DNA of 64,000 nt from Corallococcus exiguus (GTDB taxonomy: Bacteria; Myxococcota; Myxococcia; Myxococcales; Myxococcaceae), in the NCBI RefSeq assembly GCF_051058965.1, contig NZ_CP183924.1, one strand, 5' to 3'. A program made the position numbers and the translations under genes. This document shows, piece by piece, positions 25,295 to 56,800 of the stretch. Under the pieces are notes generated by a model, which saw only the letters and a program-made list of their open reading frames with translations, was not told the DNA's origin and made no database searches. Each line of letters opens with the position of its first letter. Within the stretch, counting starts at the first letter, position 1.

Positions 25295-27013
25295 CTACTT
25301 GTTGATGCGCACCATGGCCACGTCGTAGTGGCGCTCGGTCACGTAGCCGTTCGCGGCCTTGCCGGGGCGGTACATGTTCCCGGTCTTGTCATCCACGTAG
25401 AAGCGGTTGTTCGGGTTCGTGTCCTTGCCCGTGCTGGCGTTCTTCGTGCCCGGGTCGTGGAACGTGTAGTAGGTGCGGCCCTTGTCGTCGACGCCGCGGC
25501 CCGTGATGGTCACGAAGTGGTCCGTGAGGCCGTCCGCGTTGTAGGTCGCGTCCTTGTGGCTCACGCCCACGACCACCGGCTTGCCGGCCTCCAGCTGCTT
25601 GTCGATGTAGCTGCGGCCCTCGGCGGCCTTCTTCGAGTCCACGTTGAGCGCGCCGACGCCGTTCTCGCTCTTGCCCACCTGGATGCGGCGGTCCGGGCCC
25701 AGCACGGTCGCGCCGGAGTCACGCGCCATCGCCGTCGCGGCCTTGAAGCACGCCGTGTCGCTCGCGGTGTAGCCGTGGCCGTTCTCGAACTGGCTGTAGT
25801 ACGGCACCTTCACGTGCACCGCCGGCTTGTCCTTGGACGGGGCCACCTGCTCCGTGTTCGCGGGGGCCGCCTCCGTGGTGGGCTTGGAGGTGTTCGTGCC
25901 CTGCGTCGTGGGCTTGCCTTCCGTGGTGCCCGGCTTCGAGCCGTTGTTCACGGACGGGGGAACCACGCCCGTGTTGGTGTTGGCCGGCTTCGTCGTGGTG
26001 CCCGACTTCTCCTGCTTCAGCATCGCGAGGGCGTCCTTCGCCTCCGACTTGAAGCGGTTGGCCACGCCCTTCTGCACATCCTTGGAGCTGCCGGAGAAGT
26101 GCACCAGGGTGCCGCTGGCGTTGGTGCGGCCGCGCTCGGCGTAGATGTCCTTGATGAGCTGCTCGTCGCTCACCTTCGCGGGGTCACGCCCGTTGAGCGC
26201 CTTCTTGAAGATGTCATCCGCCTTGCCCGGGCCGTGCTGCACGGAGGTGGACCAGGCCACGTCTCGCAGCGCCGCGGAGCGCTTGTCCAGGTCGATGCCC
26301 GTCGCCTTCTTGATGTTGGCGGCGCCCGCGTCGTAGTGCGTGGTCTTGATGTAGTCGTGCTGCGCCTTGTCGAAGCCCTTCGGGTCCTTCGCGGCCAGCT
26401 GCTTCCACGCGGCGGAGAACTCCGCGGTGCCCGGCTTGCTGCCCGACAGCGCCTTGTGGAAGTCCGGGTTCGTCTTCTTCAGCGAGTTGACGAACGACTG
26501 CGCGGACCCGTTCGCGGAGGCGAACTGGTAGGAGCCGTAGGACACGCCGCCCTTGTCACCCTTGCCCGTGGACACGGTGCCGGGGCCGCGAGCCTCGTAC
26601 TTGCGGCTCAGCCCGCCCAGTTCCCCGTTGGTCGCGCTGCTGGAGGACGTGTTCGTCGCGGGCGTCGTCGCCTTCGCGCCGTCCGTGGACTGCGTGAAGC
26701 TGTCGCCCGACGTCTTCGTCCCCGCGCTCGACTTGTTGGTGCCCTTCGTGTCGAAGCCGTCCTGCACCTTCAGCGTCTGGCCGGCCAGGATCTTGTTCGG
26801 ATCCTTGATGTTGTTCGCCTTGGCCAGCGCGTCAACGGTCGTGTTGTAGCGCTTCGCGAGCCCGGAAAGCGTGTCGCCCGAATTGACGCGGATGTTGGAG
26901 ACGGTCACGGAGAAGACCCCTCTATGTCTGGCCGCGACCAAAGGCGCCGCGGACGTGCTTGGATTGACCGGATTATCGAAAGGCAATGCGATCAGTTTCG
27001 CATTCCCAGTCAC
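25295..27013 (-). CDS. LysM-domain protein with a central unknown domain and a C-terminal C39-like (papain-fold) cysteine peptidase domain. Candidate peptidoglycan-targeting hydrolase or effector.
   Basis: LysM reads [48 protein letters not shown]. Low-complexity T/S/G linkers follow. The C-terminus carries [28 protein letters not shown], a Peptidase_C39_2-like YYSQ...C motif. Codon usage looks atypical (Lys/Asn/Thr-rich), and the flanking intergenic region is AT-rich. Confidence 0.65.
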
Positions 27014-27101
27014 AATCGTGTGAAACCAGTGATTCCAGCAACTTCAGTTTCAGCAGATCGATCCGCTGAGACTGAAGAACCTGCCCAGGAGGACCACTCG
27101 G

Positions 27102-28136
27102 ATGTCCAGGATCCAACCGGAATTCAAAAGTTTGGCATTACTGTTTGCCATTTGCGTCACGACCGCGGTCCCGGACGCCTCGGCTCAGGGGTCCGAGGGA
27201 CTCACGGGGGTCTATTCGAACAAGGGCGGGACGCTCGCCATCGTCGAAGGCAGCAACGAGACGCTCGTGCACTTCTCGGGCTCGTTCCCGCAGGGCAGCA
27301 GCGCGGGCACCTGCGATTGCGCCCTGGTCGTCCAGAAGAAGACAGTCACGAATTGGTCACTTCATCAGGCGGGTGAGGAAGACGCCTGGACGCTGCGCGT
27401 CAATCCCAAGCAATTCGTCCTGGAGTCGGGTCCGTCACCGTCCTGTTGCGGCGCCGGCTACCCAGGCAAGGACACGTTCGCCCGGAGTACCTCCAAGCCG
27501 CTGAGCATCTGCAAGGTGAAGGTGTCCAAGGCGGGCTTCCACGCGTCGGACGCGGCCAACACGCCGCGCAAGGCGTTCGTGGTGTCTGGCGACGCGGTGG
27601 AGGCCTACGTCGACCCGGTGGAGCCGGACTTCCTCGCCGCGCGCTTCCAGGGCCCCCAGAAGGCCACGGCGGGGCTGCTCAAGCGCGAGGACCTGGACTG
27701 CGCGGCGGAAGGCGCGCCCACGGCCGCGAAGGCTCCCGTGGCCGCGGACAAGCTCCAGCCCTTCGCGGGGACGTGGGTGGAGTTGACGCGGCAGGGCAAG
27801 GGCTTCGTGGTGCTCAAGCCCTGCTCGGCGGCGACGCGCAGCTTCACCGTCAAGCCCGCGACGGGCGAGGTGGAGGTGCAGTTGGGCCAGGAGGCCACGA
27901 CGATGAAGGTGACGTCCGTGGAGGCCGGCAAGGGCGCCGGGGCCTGGGTGCTGGGGCTCACGGCCGCGGACGGCAAGCCGGAGTCGCTCCAGTGGAAGAC
28001 GGCCGACGCCGCGAAGGGCACCGTGACCGTGAACAGCCCGGACCTCTTCTCCCAGAGCCACGACTACGTGCGCCAGGAGAAGAAGTCCGCCTTCCCGACC
28101 AAGCAGGAGACGGGATGCGACGAGTTCGAGCGCTAA
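27102..28136 (+). CDS. Hypothetical secreted protein (signal peptide, several Cys)
   Basis: The signal peptide ends MSRIQPEFKSLALLFAICVTTAVPDASAQG. I recognise no domain. It is divergent from the LysM gene across an AT-rich intergenic region (26940-27100). Confidence 0.55.
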   Translation: MSRIQPEFKSLALLFAICVTTAVPDASAQGSEGLTGVYSNKGGTLAIVEGSNETLVHFSGSFPQGSSAGTCDCALVVQKKTVTNWSLHQAGEEDAWTLRVNPKQFVLESGPSPSCCGAGYPGKDTFARSTSKPLSICKVKVSKAGFHASDAANTPRKAFVVSGDAVEAYVDPVEPDFLAARFQGPQKATAGLLKREDLDCAAEGAPTAAKAPVAADKLQPFAGTWVELTRQGKGFVVLKPCSAATRSFTVKPATGEVEVQLGQEATTMKVTSVEAGKGAGAWVLGLTAADGKPESLQWKTADAAKGTVTVNSPDLFSQSHDYVRQEKKSAFPTKQETGCDEFER

Positions 28137-38248: not shown

Positions 38249-39511
38249 TCAATGCTGGGTCTCGCGGTCCTTGATGAGCCGCTCCAGCTCTTCCCGGATG
38301 ATGGTCTCCGCCAGCTGCGGAACGACCTCCCAGGCAATCTTCTCGATGACCTCGCGGGACGCCTTCGACAGCGCCTCGCGCAGCAGCGCCTCTCCGCCAT
38401 CCGCGGCCGGACGGGCGCGCGCGGGCGGAGTCGCCGGCGAGGGACCGCCGATGTCCAGGGAGATCTCCTCCGCGCCGCTGGGCTCGGGCAGCGAGTCCTC
38501 GATGCGGATGCTCGCCGTGCGGGCCTGCGCGGCGGGCGGGGCGGCCGGAGCACCCAGCCCGAACGGATCCCGGGCACGGGCGGCCGGAGGCACCGCGGCG
38601 GGCGGGGGCGCGGACGGCAGCGGCGCGGCGCCCGGAGGACGCGGGAAGCCGCCCGGGATGTTCGGGGCGCCAGGGCCCGGAGGACGCGCGGCCATGCCCG
38701 GAGGAGGCGCACCCGGAGGACGCGCGCCCGGCGGCACGGCACCCGGCGGAGGACGCGCACCCGGAGGCATGGCGCCCGGAGGCGGCGCACCCGGAGGACG
38801 CGCGCCCATGCCCGGAGGCGGCGCACCCGGAGGAGGACGTGCACCCGGAGGCATGGCGCCCGGAGGCGGCGCACCCGGAGGACGCGCGCCCGGAGGCACA
38901 GCGCCCGGCAGCGGACGCGCCGCACCCGGAGGAGGAGGCACACCGGCGCCCGGAGGACGCGCGCCCGGAGGCACGGCACCCGGCGGAGGACGTGCACCCG
39001 GCGGCACGGCGCCCGGAGGCGGCGCACCCGCGGGACGCGCACCCGGCGGCACGGCGGCGGCGGGCGGCGCGCTGACCGGAGCGCTCGGGGCGGAGGTCTG
39101 GGGCAGAATGCGCGTCGCGGCGGACGCGGGCATCGTGTTGGACTTCTGGCCCACCAGCGCCTTCACCTTGTCGAGGAGGATCTGGCTCTCGAAGGGCTTG
39201 GTGATGTGGTCATCCGCCCGGGCGGCCTTCGCGCGGTTCTCGTCGAACGCCTCGAAGGTGCCGGCGAGCAGCAGCACCGGGATGGCCTGCGTGGAGGGGT
39301 CGCTCTTGAGCGCCTCGCAGACCTCGTAGCCGCTCTTGCCCGGCATCATCACGTCGGCGAGCACCACGTCGGGACGCATCTCGCGCGTGCGGGAGATGGC
39401 GTCCAGCCCGTTGTCCACCGCGGTCACCTGGAAGTCTTCCGTCGCGAAGATCATCCCGATCACCTTGCGGATGGTGAGCGAGTCGTCAGCGATCAGTAGA
39501 TTCTTGGGCAT
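38249..39511 (-). CDS. romR: Response regulator with an N-terminal REC domain, a long Pro/Gly/Ala-rich repeat linker (PPGARPPGA x many) and an acidic C-terminal domain. It is RomR-like (the polarity regulator of myxobacterial motility).
   Basis: REC reads MPKNLLIADDSLTIRKVIGM...DVVLADVMMPGKSGYEVC...PVLLLAG. An approximately 180-aa Pro-rich region is encoded by GC-rich tandem DNA repeats (38600-39060). The C-terminus reads EEISLDIGG...ALLREALSKASREVIEKIAWEVVPQLAETIIREELERL. Length from MPKNLL is 420 aa, matching M. xanthus RomR. Confidence 0.7.
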   Translation of the reverse strand: MPKNLLIADDSLTIRKVIGMIFATEDFQVTAVDNGLDAISRTREMRPDVVLADVMMPGKSGYEVCEALKSDPSTQAIPVLLLAGTFEAFDENRAKAARADDHITKPFESQILLDKVKALVGQKSNTMPASAATRILPQTSAPSAPVSAPPAAAVPPGARPAGAPPPGAVPPGARPPPGAVPPGARPPGAGVPPPPGAARPLPGAVPPGARPPGAPPPGAMPPGARPPPGAPPPGMGARPPGAPPPGAMPPGARPPPGAVPPGARPPGAPPPGMAARPPGPGAPNIPGGFPRPPGAAPLPSAPPPAAVPPAARARDPFGLGAPAAPPAAQARTASIRIEDSLPEPSGAEEISLDIGGPSPATPPARARPAADGGEALLREALSKASREVIEKIAWEVVPQLAETIIREELERLIKDRETQH

Positions 39512-51413: not shown

Positions 51414-51507
51414 TCTGCTTGCGGCCTGATGTCAGAGCCGCAGACGCGACAGGCCTTGTCTGAGGATGGACAGGTAATTGACGGCCAGCGTGTCGTAGCG
51501 GGAGCCA

Positions 51508-53790
51508 ATGGCACGCTTGTCCGTACTCCGTGCCGATGGATGCAGGTCCGTGACCGGGTACCCCGGACCGGTTATACGTCCCCCGTTCACCAGGGGAGAC
51601 ACCGTGTCCGAAGAGTTGGAGGTCGCTAGCGCATGCTGGTTGCTGTTCAAGAAGGCGCGGGAGTGGCCCTCCAAGAAGCTCTTCGCCCGCAGCTACCCCC
51701 ATTGGGCCGCCCCCGTCCTGAGCTCCCAGAAGAAGTGGCCCCACATCCATGTCAGTAGCGAGATCAGACCTGACTGGGAACTCCTCTTCATTCTTCCGGA
51801 GACGCGCACCCTCCTCGCCCCGCTCCCTGCATTCATCCGTGATGTGGCCGCCCGGGTCGTTGCGAACCCCATTTATCGCAACGATCATTCATCGCGGTTG
51901 AACCTCACGCTGAAGGACTTCGAGCGATTCTGGAGCAACGCCGATACAGCCAGGCTCGCGGCAGATCTGCTGACCAAGCTGTGGAATCCCTGGCTCGGCT
52001 GGGGAAGCTCAGATTCGGAGGGCGTCAGGTTCCATCCACACCTGGATGTACTCCGATATGAGCATGTCCAGGGGCTCGACGAGTTGCTTCAGCAAAGCCA
52101 CCTGCCGCCGAGCGGCGCCCAGAAAAAGGTCGCCGAGCCCGAAGGCACGTATCTGCAGCTCCTGCACCGGATTCACGAGCATCTCAAGCGAACTGGCACC
52201 TGGCCCGAGGCCGTTCCCTTCACGGTAGCGCACCGCGACCTTGGCTTCATCCCGGATCTCGTCGACCGGCTTGAACCCGAGTTCATCCGGAGAGCATGGA
52301 AAGGGACACGGGACGAGAAACTCAAGCTCACCTTCAAGAGCCTTGACCGGGTCACATCCGCGCACGAACGACACCTTCTCGCTCAGGCAGTCCGGGCCAT
52401 GGCCCAGATCTGGCTGGACACGGATGAGCCCGATTCCAACTTCGGCATCACCGCCGAGATGGTTGCGCATGAATCGAAGCTTTCGCAGGCAGAGGTGGGC
52501 CCCTTGTTGCGATACCTGGAGCAGGCGTTCTGGGTAACAATCGAGCCCTCGGACTGGGTGGAACAGCCCTGGAAGTTACTGGTCAATGACAAGATTGGCC
52601 TCCTGAAGAACGTGGAGATCTGGGAGGATTATCTCCGAGCCATCCAAGAGGAGGAAAAAGCTCAGCACCATGCGGTAATCAGTTCGGTTGATCTGGAACG
52701 ACTCGCCAACGTATCAGAAGGCTTTTTCGCACCAGCCCGCGAGCCGCCCGCCCTGGGTAAGAAAGGGCGCAGCCGACGCGCCAAGAAGGCAAAGCCGATA
52801 TTCATCAGCCATGCCGCGAAGGACAAGGAGCTTGTCGATGCCTTCGTGGAGCTTCTTGTGTTCGGAATGGGCGTCGACGCCGACGACATGGTCTGCAGTT
52901 CCCTGAGTCAGCAGGCTGTTCCATTGGGAAACAAGTTCAGGGATTACCTGAGAGATTCCGTCAATGGCTGCTCCCTGTTCATCTGCCTCGTCTCCAAGAA
53001 CTTCTACGCCAGCACGTTCGCTCTTTGTGAAGTCGGTGCGGCCTGGGGCGCAAATAAGATCATTGTCCCCGTGATGGTGCCTCCCCTGGGGCCAGAGGAT
53101 CTGGAAGCCGTGCTCCAAGATGGATGGCAGGCCGTCGAGCTACTGAATGGCGACCAGTTGGCACAAGTGGAAGGACTTCTCCGCAAGCACCTCGGGGGTA
53201 CTGGCGACATCGGCCGCTGGAACCACCAGCTTCGGAAGTTCCTGAAAACGGCTCGGGAAGTGGGGCAGGATGCCTCCAGAGATGCTTCAGGCCAGGACAC
53301 TCACTCACCTGAGCGCGCAGGTCATGACATACACAAGCAAGCAGGAGCGTCTTCCAGCGTCCGAAATGTCCAAGCCTCTGACCCGCCGGACTGGCAGACC
53401 TTCGTGAAGCTTGTTGGGGCGGTAAGAGCGGCCAGCGAACCGCTCTCTCCCGTGCTGCGAGCGGCAGCCTATGCGACAGGCTCTGGAATGGCGGGAGAGG
53501 TTATCGGCAGAGATTACAAAGACATCCGTGACGCTGAAGACCGCGGCATGCTCGTGTTCGACGCGAACAAGTTCTGGGCGGACGACGACAGCCGGCTCAT
53601 GCGCAGTGTTGTCGAGCCCTTCAATGCCTTGAAAGGCTTCCTCCAGCAGGCAAGCGATCGCTTCCACCTTGAGCACGAGAAACGATACGGGTTTGTCGCG
53701 GATATGCAGAAGCTGCGATTCGCGGAAGTACACATTGGGTTCAGCTGGGTCTACGGCACACCGGATCCGGACGACAACATCCCATTCTGA
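51508..53790 (+). CDS. Large (about 760 aa) hypothetical protein with a central TIR-like domain. It is the first gene of the post-tRNA island.
   Basis: A central block reads KKAKPIFISHAAKDKELVDAFVELLVFGMGVDADDMVCSS...GNKFRDYLRDSVNGCSLFICLVSKNFYASTFALCEVGAAWGANKIIVPVMV. This is the TIR_2-like pattern (FISH...D, then SKNYxxSxWC.E). I could not assign the N-terminal approximately 430 aa or the C-terminal approximately 230 aa. GC is noticeably lower than in the flanks. The start is uncertain (ATG 51508 or GTG 51604). Confidence 0.55.
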   Translation: MARLSVLRADGCRSVTGYPGPVIRPPFTRGDTVSEELEVASACWLLFKKAREWPSKKLFARSYPHWAAPVLSSQKKWPHIHVSSEIRPDWELLFILPETRTLLAPLPAFIRDVAARVVANPIYRNDHSSRLNLTLKDFERFWSNADTARLAADLLTKLWNPWLGWGSSDSEGVRFHPHLDVLRYEHVQGLDELLQQSHLPPSGAQKKVAEPEGTYLQLLHRIHEHLKRTGTWPEAVPFTVAHRDLGFIPDLVDRLEPEFIRRAWKGTRDEKLKLTFKSLDRVTSAHERHLLAQAVRAMAQIWLDTDEPDSNFGITAEMVAHESKLSQAEVGPLLRYLEQAFWVTIEPSDWVEQPWKLLVNDKIGLLKNVEIWEDYLRAIQEEEKAQHHAVISSVDLERLANVSEGFFAPAREPPALGKKGRSRRAKKAKPIFISHAAKDKELVDAFVELLVFGMGVDADDMVCSSLSQQAVPLGNKFRDYLRDSVNGCSLFICLVSKNFYASTFALCEVGAAWGANKIIVPVMVPPLGPEDLEAVLQDGWQAVELLNGDQLAQVEGLLRKHLGGTGDIGRWNHQLRKFLKTAREVGQDASRDASGQDTHSPERAGHDIHKQAGASSSVRNVQASDPPDWQTFVKLVGAVRAASEPLSPVLRAAAYATGSGMAGEVIGRDYKDIRDAEDRGMLVFDANKFWADDDSRLMRSVVEPFNALKGFLQQASDRFHLEHEKRYGFVADMQKLRFAEVHIGFSWVYGTPDPDDNIPF

Positions 53791-53839
53791 AGTCGTGGGT
53801 CAGTGACAGTTCCCCCTGTTCATTCATGGAGACATCCTC

Positions 53840-56800
53840 ATGAGCGGCACGGCCCCCAAGAGCTGGGATCTCTTCCTCAGCTACAACAGCAGAGACCATG
53901 CGCTCGCGACGAAGCTGGCCTACCGCCTGCGCAGTGAGGGGCTCCAGCCGTGGTTCGACAAGTGGGAGCTGATTCCAGGGGAACCGTGGCTGCCCGCTGT
54001 AGAGCATGGAATCGCAGAGTGCCCATGCATGGTGGTGTGCATCGGAGCCTCTGGCTGGGGGCCGGTCCAGGACGCCGAAGCCCAGAACGCACGGATTCGC
54101 GCCATGCTCGACAGCAAACGACGGGTCATCCCAGTGTTCATGGCCGGAGTCGAACAGGTCGAGCTTCCAGGGCTGCTGAAGAACCTGGCGTATGTTGACC
54201 TCCGAGGGAACTCCGACGAGGAGTTTCGACGATTGACCCTGGCGATTGGAGGCCTCACCGCCAAACCGAGACCCGCGACCGTCGGCGATTGCCCCTACCG
54301 GGGGCTGCAACCCTTCGAAAGCCGGCACGCCGGGATGTTCTTCGGCAGGCAGGAAGATGTCTCGGGCCTGCTCGACCGGCTAGGTCGCGCACAGCGCCTG
54401 CTTCTCATCGTGGGCCCCTCTGGGAGCGGTAAGTCGTCACTGGTCATGGCGGGGCTGCTTCCGGCGGTCGCTTCCGGGCAGCTCCATGGCTCGTACGACT
54501 GGCGTGTTGTCAGCGTGCGCCCGGGGGTACGGCCCTGCCATGAACTCGCGGTGGCCCTGGGCAGCCTTGATGAAACGCCGCCCGCGGACGGGGTGGCTCG
54601 CCTCCAGGCTCGCCGCAAGTGTTTGCGTGAGGACCCCGAGTCACTCAGCGACCAGGTGGACCTCCTGCTTCAACAGCTGCCGCGCGCTTGTCGGCTCCTG
54701 TTGCTTGTCGATCAATTGGAAGAGGTGTTTTCGCAATGTCAGGACAGCGCAGACCGAGAAGCCTTCCTGGCCAACCTCGTACATGCGGGGACCATCGCAG
54801 GAGGTCGCGTGCATGTCGTGGCGACACTTCGCTCGGACTTCCTCGGTCGCCTTCAGGAGTGGCCCGGAATCGCAGGGCACCTGAACGGCTCCACATATCT
54901 CATGCGCTCGATGGCCGAGGCCGAGCTGCATGAAACCGTGGCACAGCCAGCGCAGCTCTCTGAACTGCGCTTCGAGCCGGGGCTCATCGAGGAGCTCCTC
55001 ACCGCGGTGCGCGCCCAGCCAGGTGACCTCCCCCTGCTCCAGTTCACGCTGCTCCAGCTTTGGAAGGAGCGCCAGGGAGACACGCTCACCTGGGAGGCCT
55101 ATGAGCGCATCCGTCGGCTGAAAGGGGCCATCACGCGCAGCGCGGAGCAGTGCCTCTTGACGCTCACGGAGCCCCAGCAGTCCTTGGTCCCACGGGTGTT
55201 CCGTCGACTGGTTATCGTCGGCGACGAAACCGGCGACACGCGCCGCCGCGCTTCTCGTGAAGAACTCGAAGCCCTTGGAGCAGAGGTCCCGATAATCCTC
55301 GAGCGCTTCATCTCCGAGCGCCTGCTGGTGGCCAGTGACGGTCTGGTGGAGTTGGCCCATGAAGCCCTGGTGCGCGGCTGGGAGCGACTCCGCGAATGGC
55401 TGGAAGAGGAGCGAGAGCTCCTGATGCTGCGCCAGGAGGTCGAACGTGCTTCGGAGGCATGGCGGCGCTCCGGTCAGTCCACCGACGAACTCTGGAGGGG
55501 CAGCCGTATGTCGCGGACTGGGGAGCTGAAAGACGCCCTGGCTCCCCTTCTCACCGAAAGGGAGCGGGCCTTTCTGGACGAGTCGAGAGAAACGCTGCGC
55601 CGCGACACCGAGCGTGCCGATCTGGCCGTGGCGAGGATGCTCGCGATGCGCTCGGCACAGGTGCGTCCACATCGCCCCATGCTGTCCGTGCTGCTGGCCC
55701 GCGAGGCGGTCAGGCGCTACTCCCACCCCGAGACGCGCTCGGAGCTGTACGCCGCACTGCTGGACAGCCCACTGCGCGAGGTCATCCAACTGGCGGGAGG
55801 AGCAAGAACCGGACAGCCATTGTTCCGTCCGAGCCCTGATGGGGCGACGTTCTTCGTGTGCTCAAGCGGTATGGCGGCACTTGTGTCGCGGGCTGGGAAG
55901 CTCATCACGGAGCTGCCCGTGAAGAGCCTCGACGTGAAGTTCGTGAGATTCAGTCCGGACAGAGAGCGGCTCGCAGTCATTCCCACCCAGCGCGTCGAGG
56001 GAATCGCGGCGTGGCTCTTCAGCGCTCGCGGAGAACTCATCTCCACACTCCGGGATGGCGGTTCTCAAGAGCCAACCGACTGTGCAAGCTTCAGTCCGGA
56101 TGGGCAGCATCTTCTGACCGCGCGCAGCGATGGCGCCGTGCGACTGTGGAATGTCGCCCTTGGCCATGCTGCGTATCTGCCCACCGGTGTAGGCTTTTCC
56201 TACGGACACTTCAGTCCAGACGGAACGAGGCTGCTTACGCTGTCCTCCGAAAGTCGTACAGCGAACCTATGGAGCACCGAAGGTGAGCGGCTCCACGAAC
56301 TGAAGGGGCACGAGCACCGAATCATCCATGGAAGGTGGAGCCCGGACAGCACCCATGTCCTCACGAGCGCAAGGGATGGTACCGCACGCATCTGGGACCG
56401 GGATGGCAAATCCATTGCGACACTGACCGGACACGCTGCTCCGCTCACCTATGGCTCTTTCGACCCTTCAGGCAGCCGCGTCCTTACGGTCAGTGAGGAC
56501 TCCACCGCGCGGCTCTGGGATTTGACGGGCAAGAGCCTCCTCATTCTTCGTGATGCGACCCGGGCGCTTGAGTTCTGTTCCTGGAGCCCCCAGGGCCGGC
56601 ACTTCCTGACCTGGAACCAGCATCAACTGCGCATCTACCGTGACAGTGGCCGGCTCCTCACCACGCTTCAAGAACACGAGGTGCCCGGGCGCGACCATGC
56701 AACGTGGAGTTCGGACGGAGCGTCGCTGATGACGTCGCACGCCGGCAGACATGACAAGGAGGGGCCTGAGATCCAGGTCTGGGCCGTGGAACCCGCGCCG

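Follow-up and report, generated by a model that had tools for sequence, protein, structure and literature searches.

What would be the use, to a myxobacterium, of a cell-wall hydrolase made without a secretion leader, encoded back to back with an exported protein of no annotated family? This question is raised by two divergent genes at positions 25295 to 28136 of a 64,000-nucleotide stretch of the Corallococcus exiguus genome (assembly GCF_051058965.1, contig NZ_CP183924.1), which was analysed at its full length and is called the window hereafter. A preliminary description of the locus had proposed two compositionally atypical genes for secreted proteins, possibly acquired horizontally, acting as a cell-wall-targeting effector and its partner in predation or competition. 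We consider it probable that the pair is a toxin-immunity module, made of a bifunctional peptidoglycan toxin and a composite immunity protein, with the activities and the inhibition assigned by homology and by genomic context. The idea of a cell-wall effector with a partner thus finds support in domain homology, in conserved cysteine and histidine residues and in genetic linkage; classical secretion of the effector and a foreign origin do not.

Domains and gene start of the effector

The effector gene (25295..26908, minus strand) codes for a protein of 537 amino acids in which a LysM domain, a linker, a VgrG3-like lysozyme-type domain, a second linker and a BtaeB-like, C39-like cysteine peptidase domain follow one another. 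Residue numbers below are those of the longer, 572-amino-acid open reading frame (ORF); 35 is to be subtracted for the 537-residue protein. The LysM peptidoglycan-binding domain already recognised in the preliminary description (26765..26890, minus strand; residues 42-83, or 7-48 of the 537-residue protein) matches Pfam PF01476 with an E value of 2.4e-15 and 56.6 bits, against a cut-off of 20.9, and its N-terminal placement is common to all orthologues. The central domain (26042..26620, minus strand; residues 132-324), previously left as unknown, is a VgrG3-like C-terminal lysozyme/chitosanase-type glycosidase domain. It matches PF21277 (T6SS_VgrG3-like_C) over profile positions 1-182 of 183, with an E value of 3.6e-53 and 180.7 bits against a cut-off of 27, and it matches the C-terminal domain of Vibrio cholerae VgrG3 (VgrG3C; PDB 4noo_A and 4nso_A) with an E value of 1.5e-29. 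The YE and GD..GG.SYG.YQ motifs align with those of VgrG3C, the glutamate of the first (Glu140) and the aspartate of the second (Asp153) being identical, and both residues are near-invariant across 14 orthologues. By analogy with VgrG3, we take Glu140 (YE) and Asp153 (GD.GG) to be the candidate catalytic residues of this domain.

The C-terminal domain (25298..25822, minus strand; residues 398-572) is a C39-like domain of the papain fold, with Cys422, His499 and Asp520. Its 175 residues match PDB entries 9jdd_A and 9jg8_C with E values of 1.9e-20 (single sequence) and 4.8e-25 (profile), and the alignment pairs the cysteine of the DTAC motif and the histidine of TDHF. Both entries are named "Peptidase C39-like domain-containing protein", and the title of 9jdd gives it as the complex of the BtaeB C-terminal domain with BtaiB, a type VI secretion effector-immunity complex of Bacteroides fragilis. 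BtaeB is equated with the effector Bfe7 in one report (PMC13402684); literature searches on the PDB codes and on "C39-like" effectors turned up nothing useful. Cys422, His499 and Asp520 are invariant in the orthologues (the cysteine and the histidine in 14 of them), and Cys422, the sole cysteine of the protein, is the predicted nucleophile. The papain-fold signature noticed earlier thus holds: both VPYYSQ and DTAC are found, and the Cys-His dyad is kept in the C-terminal domain. PF13529 (Peptidase_C39_2) remained below threshold, with 18.6 bits against a cut-off of 24 and a match to the C-terminal third of the profile only, which places the kinship of the effector C-terminus with this family at the superfamily level only. 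A bacteriocin-processing C39 peptidase was considered and rejected, as neither the effector nor the flanking genes carry an ABC transporter domain.

The Pfam scan of the effector returned LysM and PF21277 only, with no gp27-like or gp5-like spike domain, so the protein is not a VgrG. By these matches the effector belongs to the LysM, PF21277 and BtaeB-like domain families, and what is new is the combination of a glycosidase head and a C39-like head behind a LysM domain in one protein.

The preliminary description spoke of a 572-residue LysM protein, and an ORF of that length does exist (25295..27013, minus strand, GTG start), divergent to the ORF of 344 codons at 27102..28136 on the plus strand. 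We believe that translation most likely begins at the GTG at 26908 (26906-26908) and that the long ORF is 35 codons too long, because this GTG aligns with an ATG in eight species (intergenic alignment with nine other Corallococcus loci), because effector orthologues from six genera start with M-T-V-S-N directly before the LysM domain, and because a GAGGGG Shine-Dalgarno motif lies nine bases 5' of it. The protein would therefore have 537 residues and the intergenic region would run from 26909 to 27101 (193 bp). The 537-residue form has a mass of 56.6 kDa, a pI of 9.55 and the single cysteine Cys422. No signal peptide was found with either start (Kyte-Doolittle maxima of 0.18 and 1.12), the highest 12-residue hydrophobicity within the first 45 residues being 0.18 against 2.48 in the neighbour; the LysM domain stands nearly at the N-terminus and leaves no space for a leader. 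Of the two proteins formerly described as secreted, only the 344-residue neighbour is thus visibly exported by the Sec route. Two Lys/Thr/Asn/Ser-rich linkers are present, as had been stated. The closest database match of the 572-residue ORF is a Corallococcus exiguus protein of 99% identity.

The neighbour protein, its linkage to the effector and the separate modules

The neighbour gene (27102..28136, plus strand) codes for the proposed composite immunity protein, an all-beta, periplasmic or secreted protein of 344 amino acids. Its Sec-type signal peptide (27102..27185, plus strand; residues 1-28), with a cleavage site predicted by inspection at A-S-A|Q, reaches a Kyte-Doolittle maximum of 2.48; Ala28 is conserved, and residues 1-31 have a predicted local distance difference test score (pLDDT) below 50 in the AlphaFold model. 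The mature part contains eight cysteines, six of them invariant and two nearly so, and the earlier view of a cysteine-containing secreted protein is thereby borne out. The model as a whole (mean pLDDT 80) consists of beta structure, interrupted by a disordered stretch at residues 203-209. Before this stretch lies the N-module (27201..27701, plus strand; residues 34-200), in which an eight-stranded beta-barrel precedes an SH3b-like domain and which holds the six invariant cysteines 71, 73, 115, 116, 137 and 200. After it comes the C-module (27744..28133, plus strand; residues 215-344), a beta-barrel of lipocalin-like form that may resemble BtaiB. The neighbour has no match in Pfam, NCBIfam, PHROG or PADLOC, and a sequence-profile search of the PDB with E values up to 10 gave chance-level matches only, among which 9jdd_B (BtaiB) did not appear. 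There is likewise no sequence or fold similarity to TsiV3.

The two genes adjoin in 23 loci from five genera: Corallococcus, Archangium, Cystobacter, Pyxidicoccus and Myxococcus. A scan for the neighbour motif over one genome per species returned 24 loci, 20 of which have a gene for the three-domain protein divergently upstream of the neighbour gene, 150-250 bp away. The same divergent arrangement was found, by way of the toxin, in loci of Cystobacter ferrugineus and Pyxidicoccus xibeiensis, with neighbours 53% and 47% identical; one metagenome locus and one further Corallococcus genome provided two more pairs. Loci L002, L003, L036 and L040 add in this way to the pairs from the scan, and a metagenome scan for further neighbour loci yielded five loci only, mostly short. 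The orthologous pairs across the five genera are 43-94% identical. Between genera the neighbour is 43-54% identical, against 58-82% for the toxin catalytic domains, and by these identities it is the neighbour that diverges faster. In Hyalangium-like genomes orphan copies of the neighbour, one of them cut to the N-module, occupy a conserved locus without the toxin.

The genes flanking the pair are unrelated between genera. Within Corallococcus the locus is syntenic, with a metalloprotease on one side and an aromatic amino-acid hydroxylase and a LysR regulator on the other. In the window, the metalloprotease (28133-29788, minus strand) is of the MXAN_6640 family, with an HExxH motif and a MYXO-CTERM tail; its gene is convergent to the neighbour gene and overlaps the last 4 bases of the latter. 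It is followed by the gene of an HmuY-like protein (29713-30747, minus strand), and three genes from the pair stands that of a 758-amino-acid homologue of the eukaryotic major vault protein (30833-33109, minus strand), which matches the MVP shoulder domain (1.3e-44) and several Vault repeat families. One strain, Corallococcus sp. CP114039.1 (L040, 5001-6943), has an insertion between toxin and hydroxylase in a locus that is otherwise syntenic: an extra gene for a 282-residue LysM-C39 protein, the peptidase domain of which is 77% identical to that of the window, and one for a 323-residue lipoprotein of the endonuclease/exonuclease/phosphatase family. The insertion brings no further neighbour-like gene with it.

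The intergenic region (26909..27101), which presumably contains both promoters, is 193 bp long and carries the ribosome-binding site of the neighbour gene, CAGGAGG, at its right end. It had been described as AT-rich, and its GC content of 55% is indeed below that of the window (about 69%); such a value is ordinary for a divergent promoter region, and a second short intergenic region nearby has 51%. Over nine Corallococcus loci (L004-L012) it is 81-91% identical, against 83-94% for coding DNA, and the long invariant blocks include AAACCAGTGATTCC and AACTTCAGTTTC. A sigma-70 consensus scan found no site in this region, and a manual search for sigma-54 sites found nothing convincing. An RNA hairpin in the 5' leader of the neighbour was considered and dropped, there being no covariation or compensatory changes.

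Both proteins are, by comparison with their relatives, fusions of modules that are also found apart. An exhaustive profile search for the neighbour family found at least 152 cluster representatives at 50% identity; many relatives of 190-220 amino acids match the N-module only, several of 130-180 amino acids match the C-module only, and leaders were present in all the stand-alone forms that were read. The N-module family is widespread and without annotation. In locus L041 a stand-alone C-module (P0284) is divergent to, and 70 bp from, a toxin with the C39-like domain only (P0144). In one case the reading frame of a stand-alone N-module (P0269) overlaps the end of the gene for a 668-amino-acid PF21277 protein, its start being four bases ahead of the stop; such an overlap agrees with the N-module being the partner of the glycosidase. 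In L030 and L031 an N-module-only gene is divergent to a LysM-starting gene at the contig end. The other novelty of the locus is accordingly on the partner's side, where two secreted modules that occur separately elsewhere are joined in a matching fusion.

Among the relatives of each catalytic head, short leaderless proteins with LysM, PG_binding_1 or SH3b at the start predominate; a few relatives have Sec leaders (P0220). Those of the glycosidase domain also include large virion proteins of jumbo phages and, in Chloroflexota, a WXG100 fusion. In M. landrumensis, an Rhs gene and an IS66 element are found close to a distant relative that has the glycosidase domain only. Among relatives of either domain (P0047-P0056, P0077, P0078, P0142 and P0217) a LysM or PG_binding_1 start without signal peptide is very frequent, and three of them (P0050, P0052 and P0055) carry the catalytic domains in reverse order. 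A metagenome contig (L032, 8001-9578) codes for a relative, P0046, in which a C39-like domain with substitutions at the Cys and His positions comes after the glycosidase domain. LysM is missing from its N-terminus, which is unrelated, and genes of the neighbour family are absent from the vicinity. Two actinobacterial relatives of the C39-like domain, P0161 from Nakamurella and P0163, have N-termini of about 100 amino acids with a W-x-G motif which resemble type VII substrates by eye; Pfam gave no WXG100 domain in them.

Mechanism, delivery and alternative explanations

In the toxin-immunity reading, the toxin, synthesised leaderless in the cytoplasm, would reach the periplasm of other cells, where its LysM domain would hold it on the murein. 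The VgrG3-like head, with the candidates Glu140 and Asp153, would cut the glycan strand, and the BtaeB-like, C39-like head, with Cys422 and His499, the murein peptide. The neighbour, exported to the periplasm by its Sec leader, would neutralise toxin coming from sibling cells: its C-module, a barrel perhaps like that of BtaiB, may block the cysteine peptidase, and its N-module, made of barrel and SH3b-like domain, may, more tentatively, block the glycosidase. The bonds cleaved by each head and the inhibition by the neighbour are what we infer by analogy. We read the neighbour as an immunity protein because a leaderless toxin beside a partner with a leader is the usual layout for toxins that act in the periplasm. 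Furthermore, the known toxin relatives of both heads, VgrG3C and the BtaeB C-terminal domain, come with cognate immunity proteins. The linkage of the two genes, the parallel modularity of their products, the orphan neighbour copies and the faster divergence of the neighbour speak for this reading as well.

Several observations weigh against this reading. The assignment of the N-module to the glycosidase comes from the single P0269 locus, which was read without its DNA, and no N-module gene lies near the glycosidase-only relatives of L029, L032 and L034, a search by hidden Markov model included. The N-module also occurs as a tandem duplicate and as the C-terminal part of proteins of 360-500 amino acids (P0274, P0288, P0303 and P0309), and in L027 (4699-6273, plus strand) its gene directly follows that of a penicillin-binding protein; being fused elsewhere and found in such company, it could be a module associated with murein in a general way. 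With the whole neighbour model, BtaiB stood outside the top 50 of a Foldseek search of the PDB, and a BtaiB-like structural match taken alone is weak evidence, because the lipocalin-like barrel is a common fold. Archangium primigenium has the toxin and no adjoining neighbour gene. As regards the delivery that the reading requires, no part of VgrG, PAAR, Rhs, MIX, FIX or Hcp was recognised in the effector, vgrG, hcp, paar and adaptor genes are absent up to about 8 kb from the pair (in the window and in L001-L003 and L040), and a protein of 56.6 kDa exceeds the size of cargo in the Hcp lumen.

Type VI secretion is the obvious candidate route, since each head has its studied relatives among type VI toxins; with no marker in the effector or its flanks, it is unsupported by genetic linkage. 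Hence the pair cannot be classed as a type VI effector on present evidence. Export as type VI cargo is conceivable, though we would hesitate to bet on it, and we give just the same tentative weight to another contact-dependent or vesicle route; release by lysis seems to us unlikely as the way of delivery. One might speculate, at long odds, that leaderless hydrolases starting with LysM or PG_binding_1 are the cargo of a delivery route without known substrates, a class that may comprise this pair, the LysM-GH19 enzymes and many short LysM/PG_binding-C39 proteins. The candidate routes in myxobacteria would then be the contact-dependent Tad-like (Kil) and needle-less type III-like killing machines, for which, to our knowledge, no effectors have been named. 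If this were true, the two-module immunity protein would point to the first set of toxin and immunity proteins linked with a route of this kind. The way in which LysM-starting leaderless proteins leave the cell also bears on other myxobacterial lysins.

The enzyme might instead be a predatory lysin which is released, either in outer-membrane vesicles or when some of the cells lyse, and is never injected. The neighbour would then guard the producer's wall while the prey wall is digested, especially exposed Gram-positive murein bound through LysM. We regard this as rather unlikely, although it agrees with the lack of any type VI marker in or near the gene, with the very strong codon bias (GC content at third codon positions, GC3, of 0.972), which fits an abundant protein, and with the fact that most C39-like relatives are short and have an N-terminal murein-binding domain and no trafficking domain. 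Leaderless LysM-first proteins are, moreover, a wider class, exemplified by C25GH19C of Corallococcus silvisoli (PMC10875029). However, a free enzyme of 57 kDa cannot cross an intact outer membrane, and for this reason the immunity protein, with its orphan copies in toxin-free genomes, is easier to explain by delivery of a toxin into neighbouring cells. Those relatives of the two domains that have been studied are toxins delivered by injection, and no secretome support for release was found, this protein going unmentioned in the supplement of the C. silvisoli secretome paper.

An endogenous autolysin, acting for example in rod-to-spore conversion or in developmental lysis under the control of the neighbour as a periplasmic regulator, is very unlikely in our opinion. 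Vertical inheritance across the whole suborder, native codon use, an intergenic region conserved like coding DNA, which suggests tight regulation, and the occurrence of the N-module family beside a penicillin-binding protein are what one would expect of it. Yet a protein without a leader has no route to the periplasm of its own cell. Furthermore, the genomic contexts differ between genera, the module is absent or orphaned in some lineages, and one strain carries the extra LysM-C39 paralogue beside the pair; the variable contexts, the patchy or orphaned presence and the inserted paralogue argue for a gene of conflict rather than of housekeeping.

The proposal of a recent horizontal acquisition, by which a compositionally foreign secreted pair would serve predation, had been made on the basis of composition, and here we used the 25 other genes of the window as codon reference and scored synonymous choice conditional on amino-acid content. 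With a GC3 of 0.972 and a z score of +5.6, the toxin gene fits the synonymous codon use better than all 25 reference genes, and is thus closer to host usage than the average gene; the neighbour gene (GC3 0.907, z = -1.7) is well within the reference range. The composition that had been called unusual is real at the amino-acid level: compared with the 25 genes, the LysM protein has 10.2% lysine (against 2.9%), 6.1% asparagine (1.9%), 10.2% threonine (5.9%) and 3.7% arginine (8.7%). The lower GC content of its gene (0.67 in total, 0.55 at first codon positions) is the result of this richness in Lys, Asn and Thr and poverty in Arg and Leu, and the basic charge of the protein (pI 9.55) would suit binding to an anionic cell wall. 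Since synonymous codon use is fully native, horizontal acquisition is not supported. Of the two refuting outcomes named in the preliminary description, codon usage that cannot be told from that of the genome is thereby borne out, and a loss of the Cys-His dyad is not. The odd amino-acid composition, the lower GC content of the intergenic region and the differing flanks between genera speak for it, and against these stand the codon fit, the first-position GC content that explains the total, the synteny in Corallococcus, the orthologues in five genera and a LysM protein without signal peptide; we hold this explanation to be highly improbable. From codon use and conservation, the pair is a native, conserved module and not recently imported DNA.

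The part of the window that does look compositionally foreign is the low-GC island at 51500-64000 (0.56-0.66 against about 0.70), which has the appearance of a conflict or defence island. Its genes code for a TIR protein (51508-53790), a TIR-STAND NTPase-WD40 protein of 1384 amino acids (53840-57994), a TIR-WD40 protein of 1232 amino acids (58264-61962, minus strand) and a MAP3K-TRAF-binding/TPR-S protein (62388-63890, minus strand). The most extreme composition of the window is found at 38501-39000, with a GC content of 0.83 and an AT skew of +0.65, overlapping an ORF at 38188-39042 on the minus strand (GC 0.79).

Finally, the glycosidase domain matches two large PHROG families (E value 1e-43) and is 35-42% identical to proteins of Erwinia and Dickeya jumbo phages, and the LysM domain matches many endolysin families, but a prophage or tailocin lysin, be it endolysin or virion-associated, with an unrelated neighbour is scarcely credible and was rejected, as the phage records cover at most 49% of the protein and are never from a phage of myxobacteria, the flanks of all loci examined are free of phage genes, and the neighbour is tightly linked in 23 loci.

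Comparison with known systems

Few damage-causing proteins are known for the contact killing of prey and non-kin by myxobacteria, and the toxin-immunity module that we propose is a candidate weapon with its presumed antidote beside it, shared by at least five genera. It also provides a first functional hypothesis for the neighbour family as a whole, with its at least 152 clusters. As the two proteins appear to be fused in parallel, and as fused and unfused states are both natural, the pair would be a clean system for the study of toxin-immunity specificity under module recombination.

Among known systems, the nearest to the pair are BtaeB-BtaiB, as regards one head, and VgrG3C, as regards the other. 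The resemblance to BtaeB-BtaiB (PDB 9JDD and 9JG8/9JG9) lies in the homologous C-terminal domain (E values of 2e-20 to 5e-25, Cys and His aligned) and in the encoding of toxin domain and partner side by side. In contrast, nothing is shared with the first 420 or so residues of BtaeB, where the window protein has its LysM and glycosidase domains; no adaptor or vgrG gene is near the window pair, and its immunity-like domain is fused to a second module. The window neighbour has no detectable sequence similarity to BtaiB, and the organisms are of different phyla. With VgrG3-TsiV3 of Vibrio cholerae (PDB 4NOO and 4NSO) the window protein has in common a full-length PF21277 domain, which matches VgrG3C (E value 1.5e-29) and in which the Glu and Asp of YE and GD are kept, and, by prediction, a murein target in the periplasm. 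It differs in that this domain is not fused to a spike (gp27/gp5) and is one of two enzymatic heads.

As an arrangement, glycan-cleaving and peptide-cleaving heads on one polypeptide recall Tse4 of Acinetobacter baumannii, which is reportedly a bifunctional cell-wall-targeting type VI effector; the two predicted heads of the window protein would follow the same logic of broad and rapid lysis. The domain families of Tse4 are different ones, and the window protein has an N-terminal LysM domain and a two-module partner. Within the lineage itself, the nearest parallel is C25GH19C, the LysM-GH19 enzyme of Corallococcus silvisoli, for which non-classical secretion was predicted by its authors (PMC10875029). 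It shares with the window protein a LysM domain at residues 1-10, the lack of a signal peptide and a murein-active domain downstream; its catalytic domain is of the GH19 family, and the paper describes no partner gene (PMC10875029), whereas the toxin of the window is accompanied by a secreted protein that may well be its antidote.

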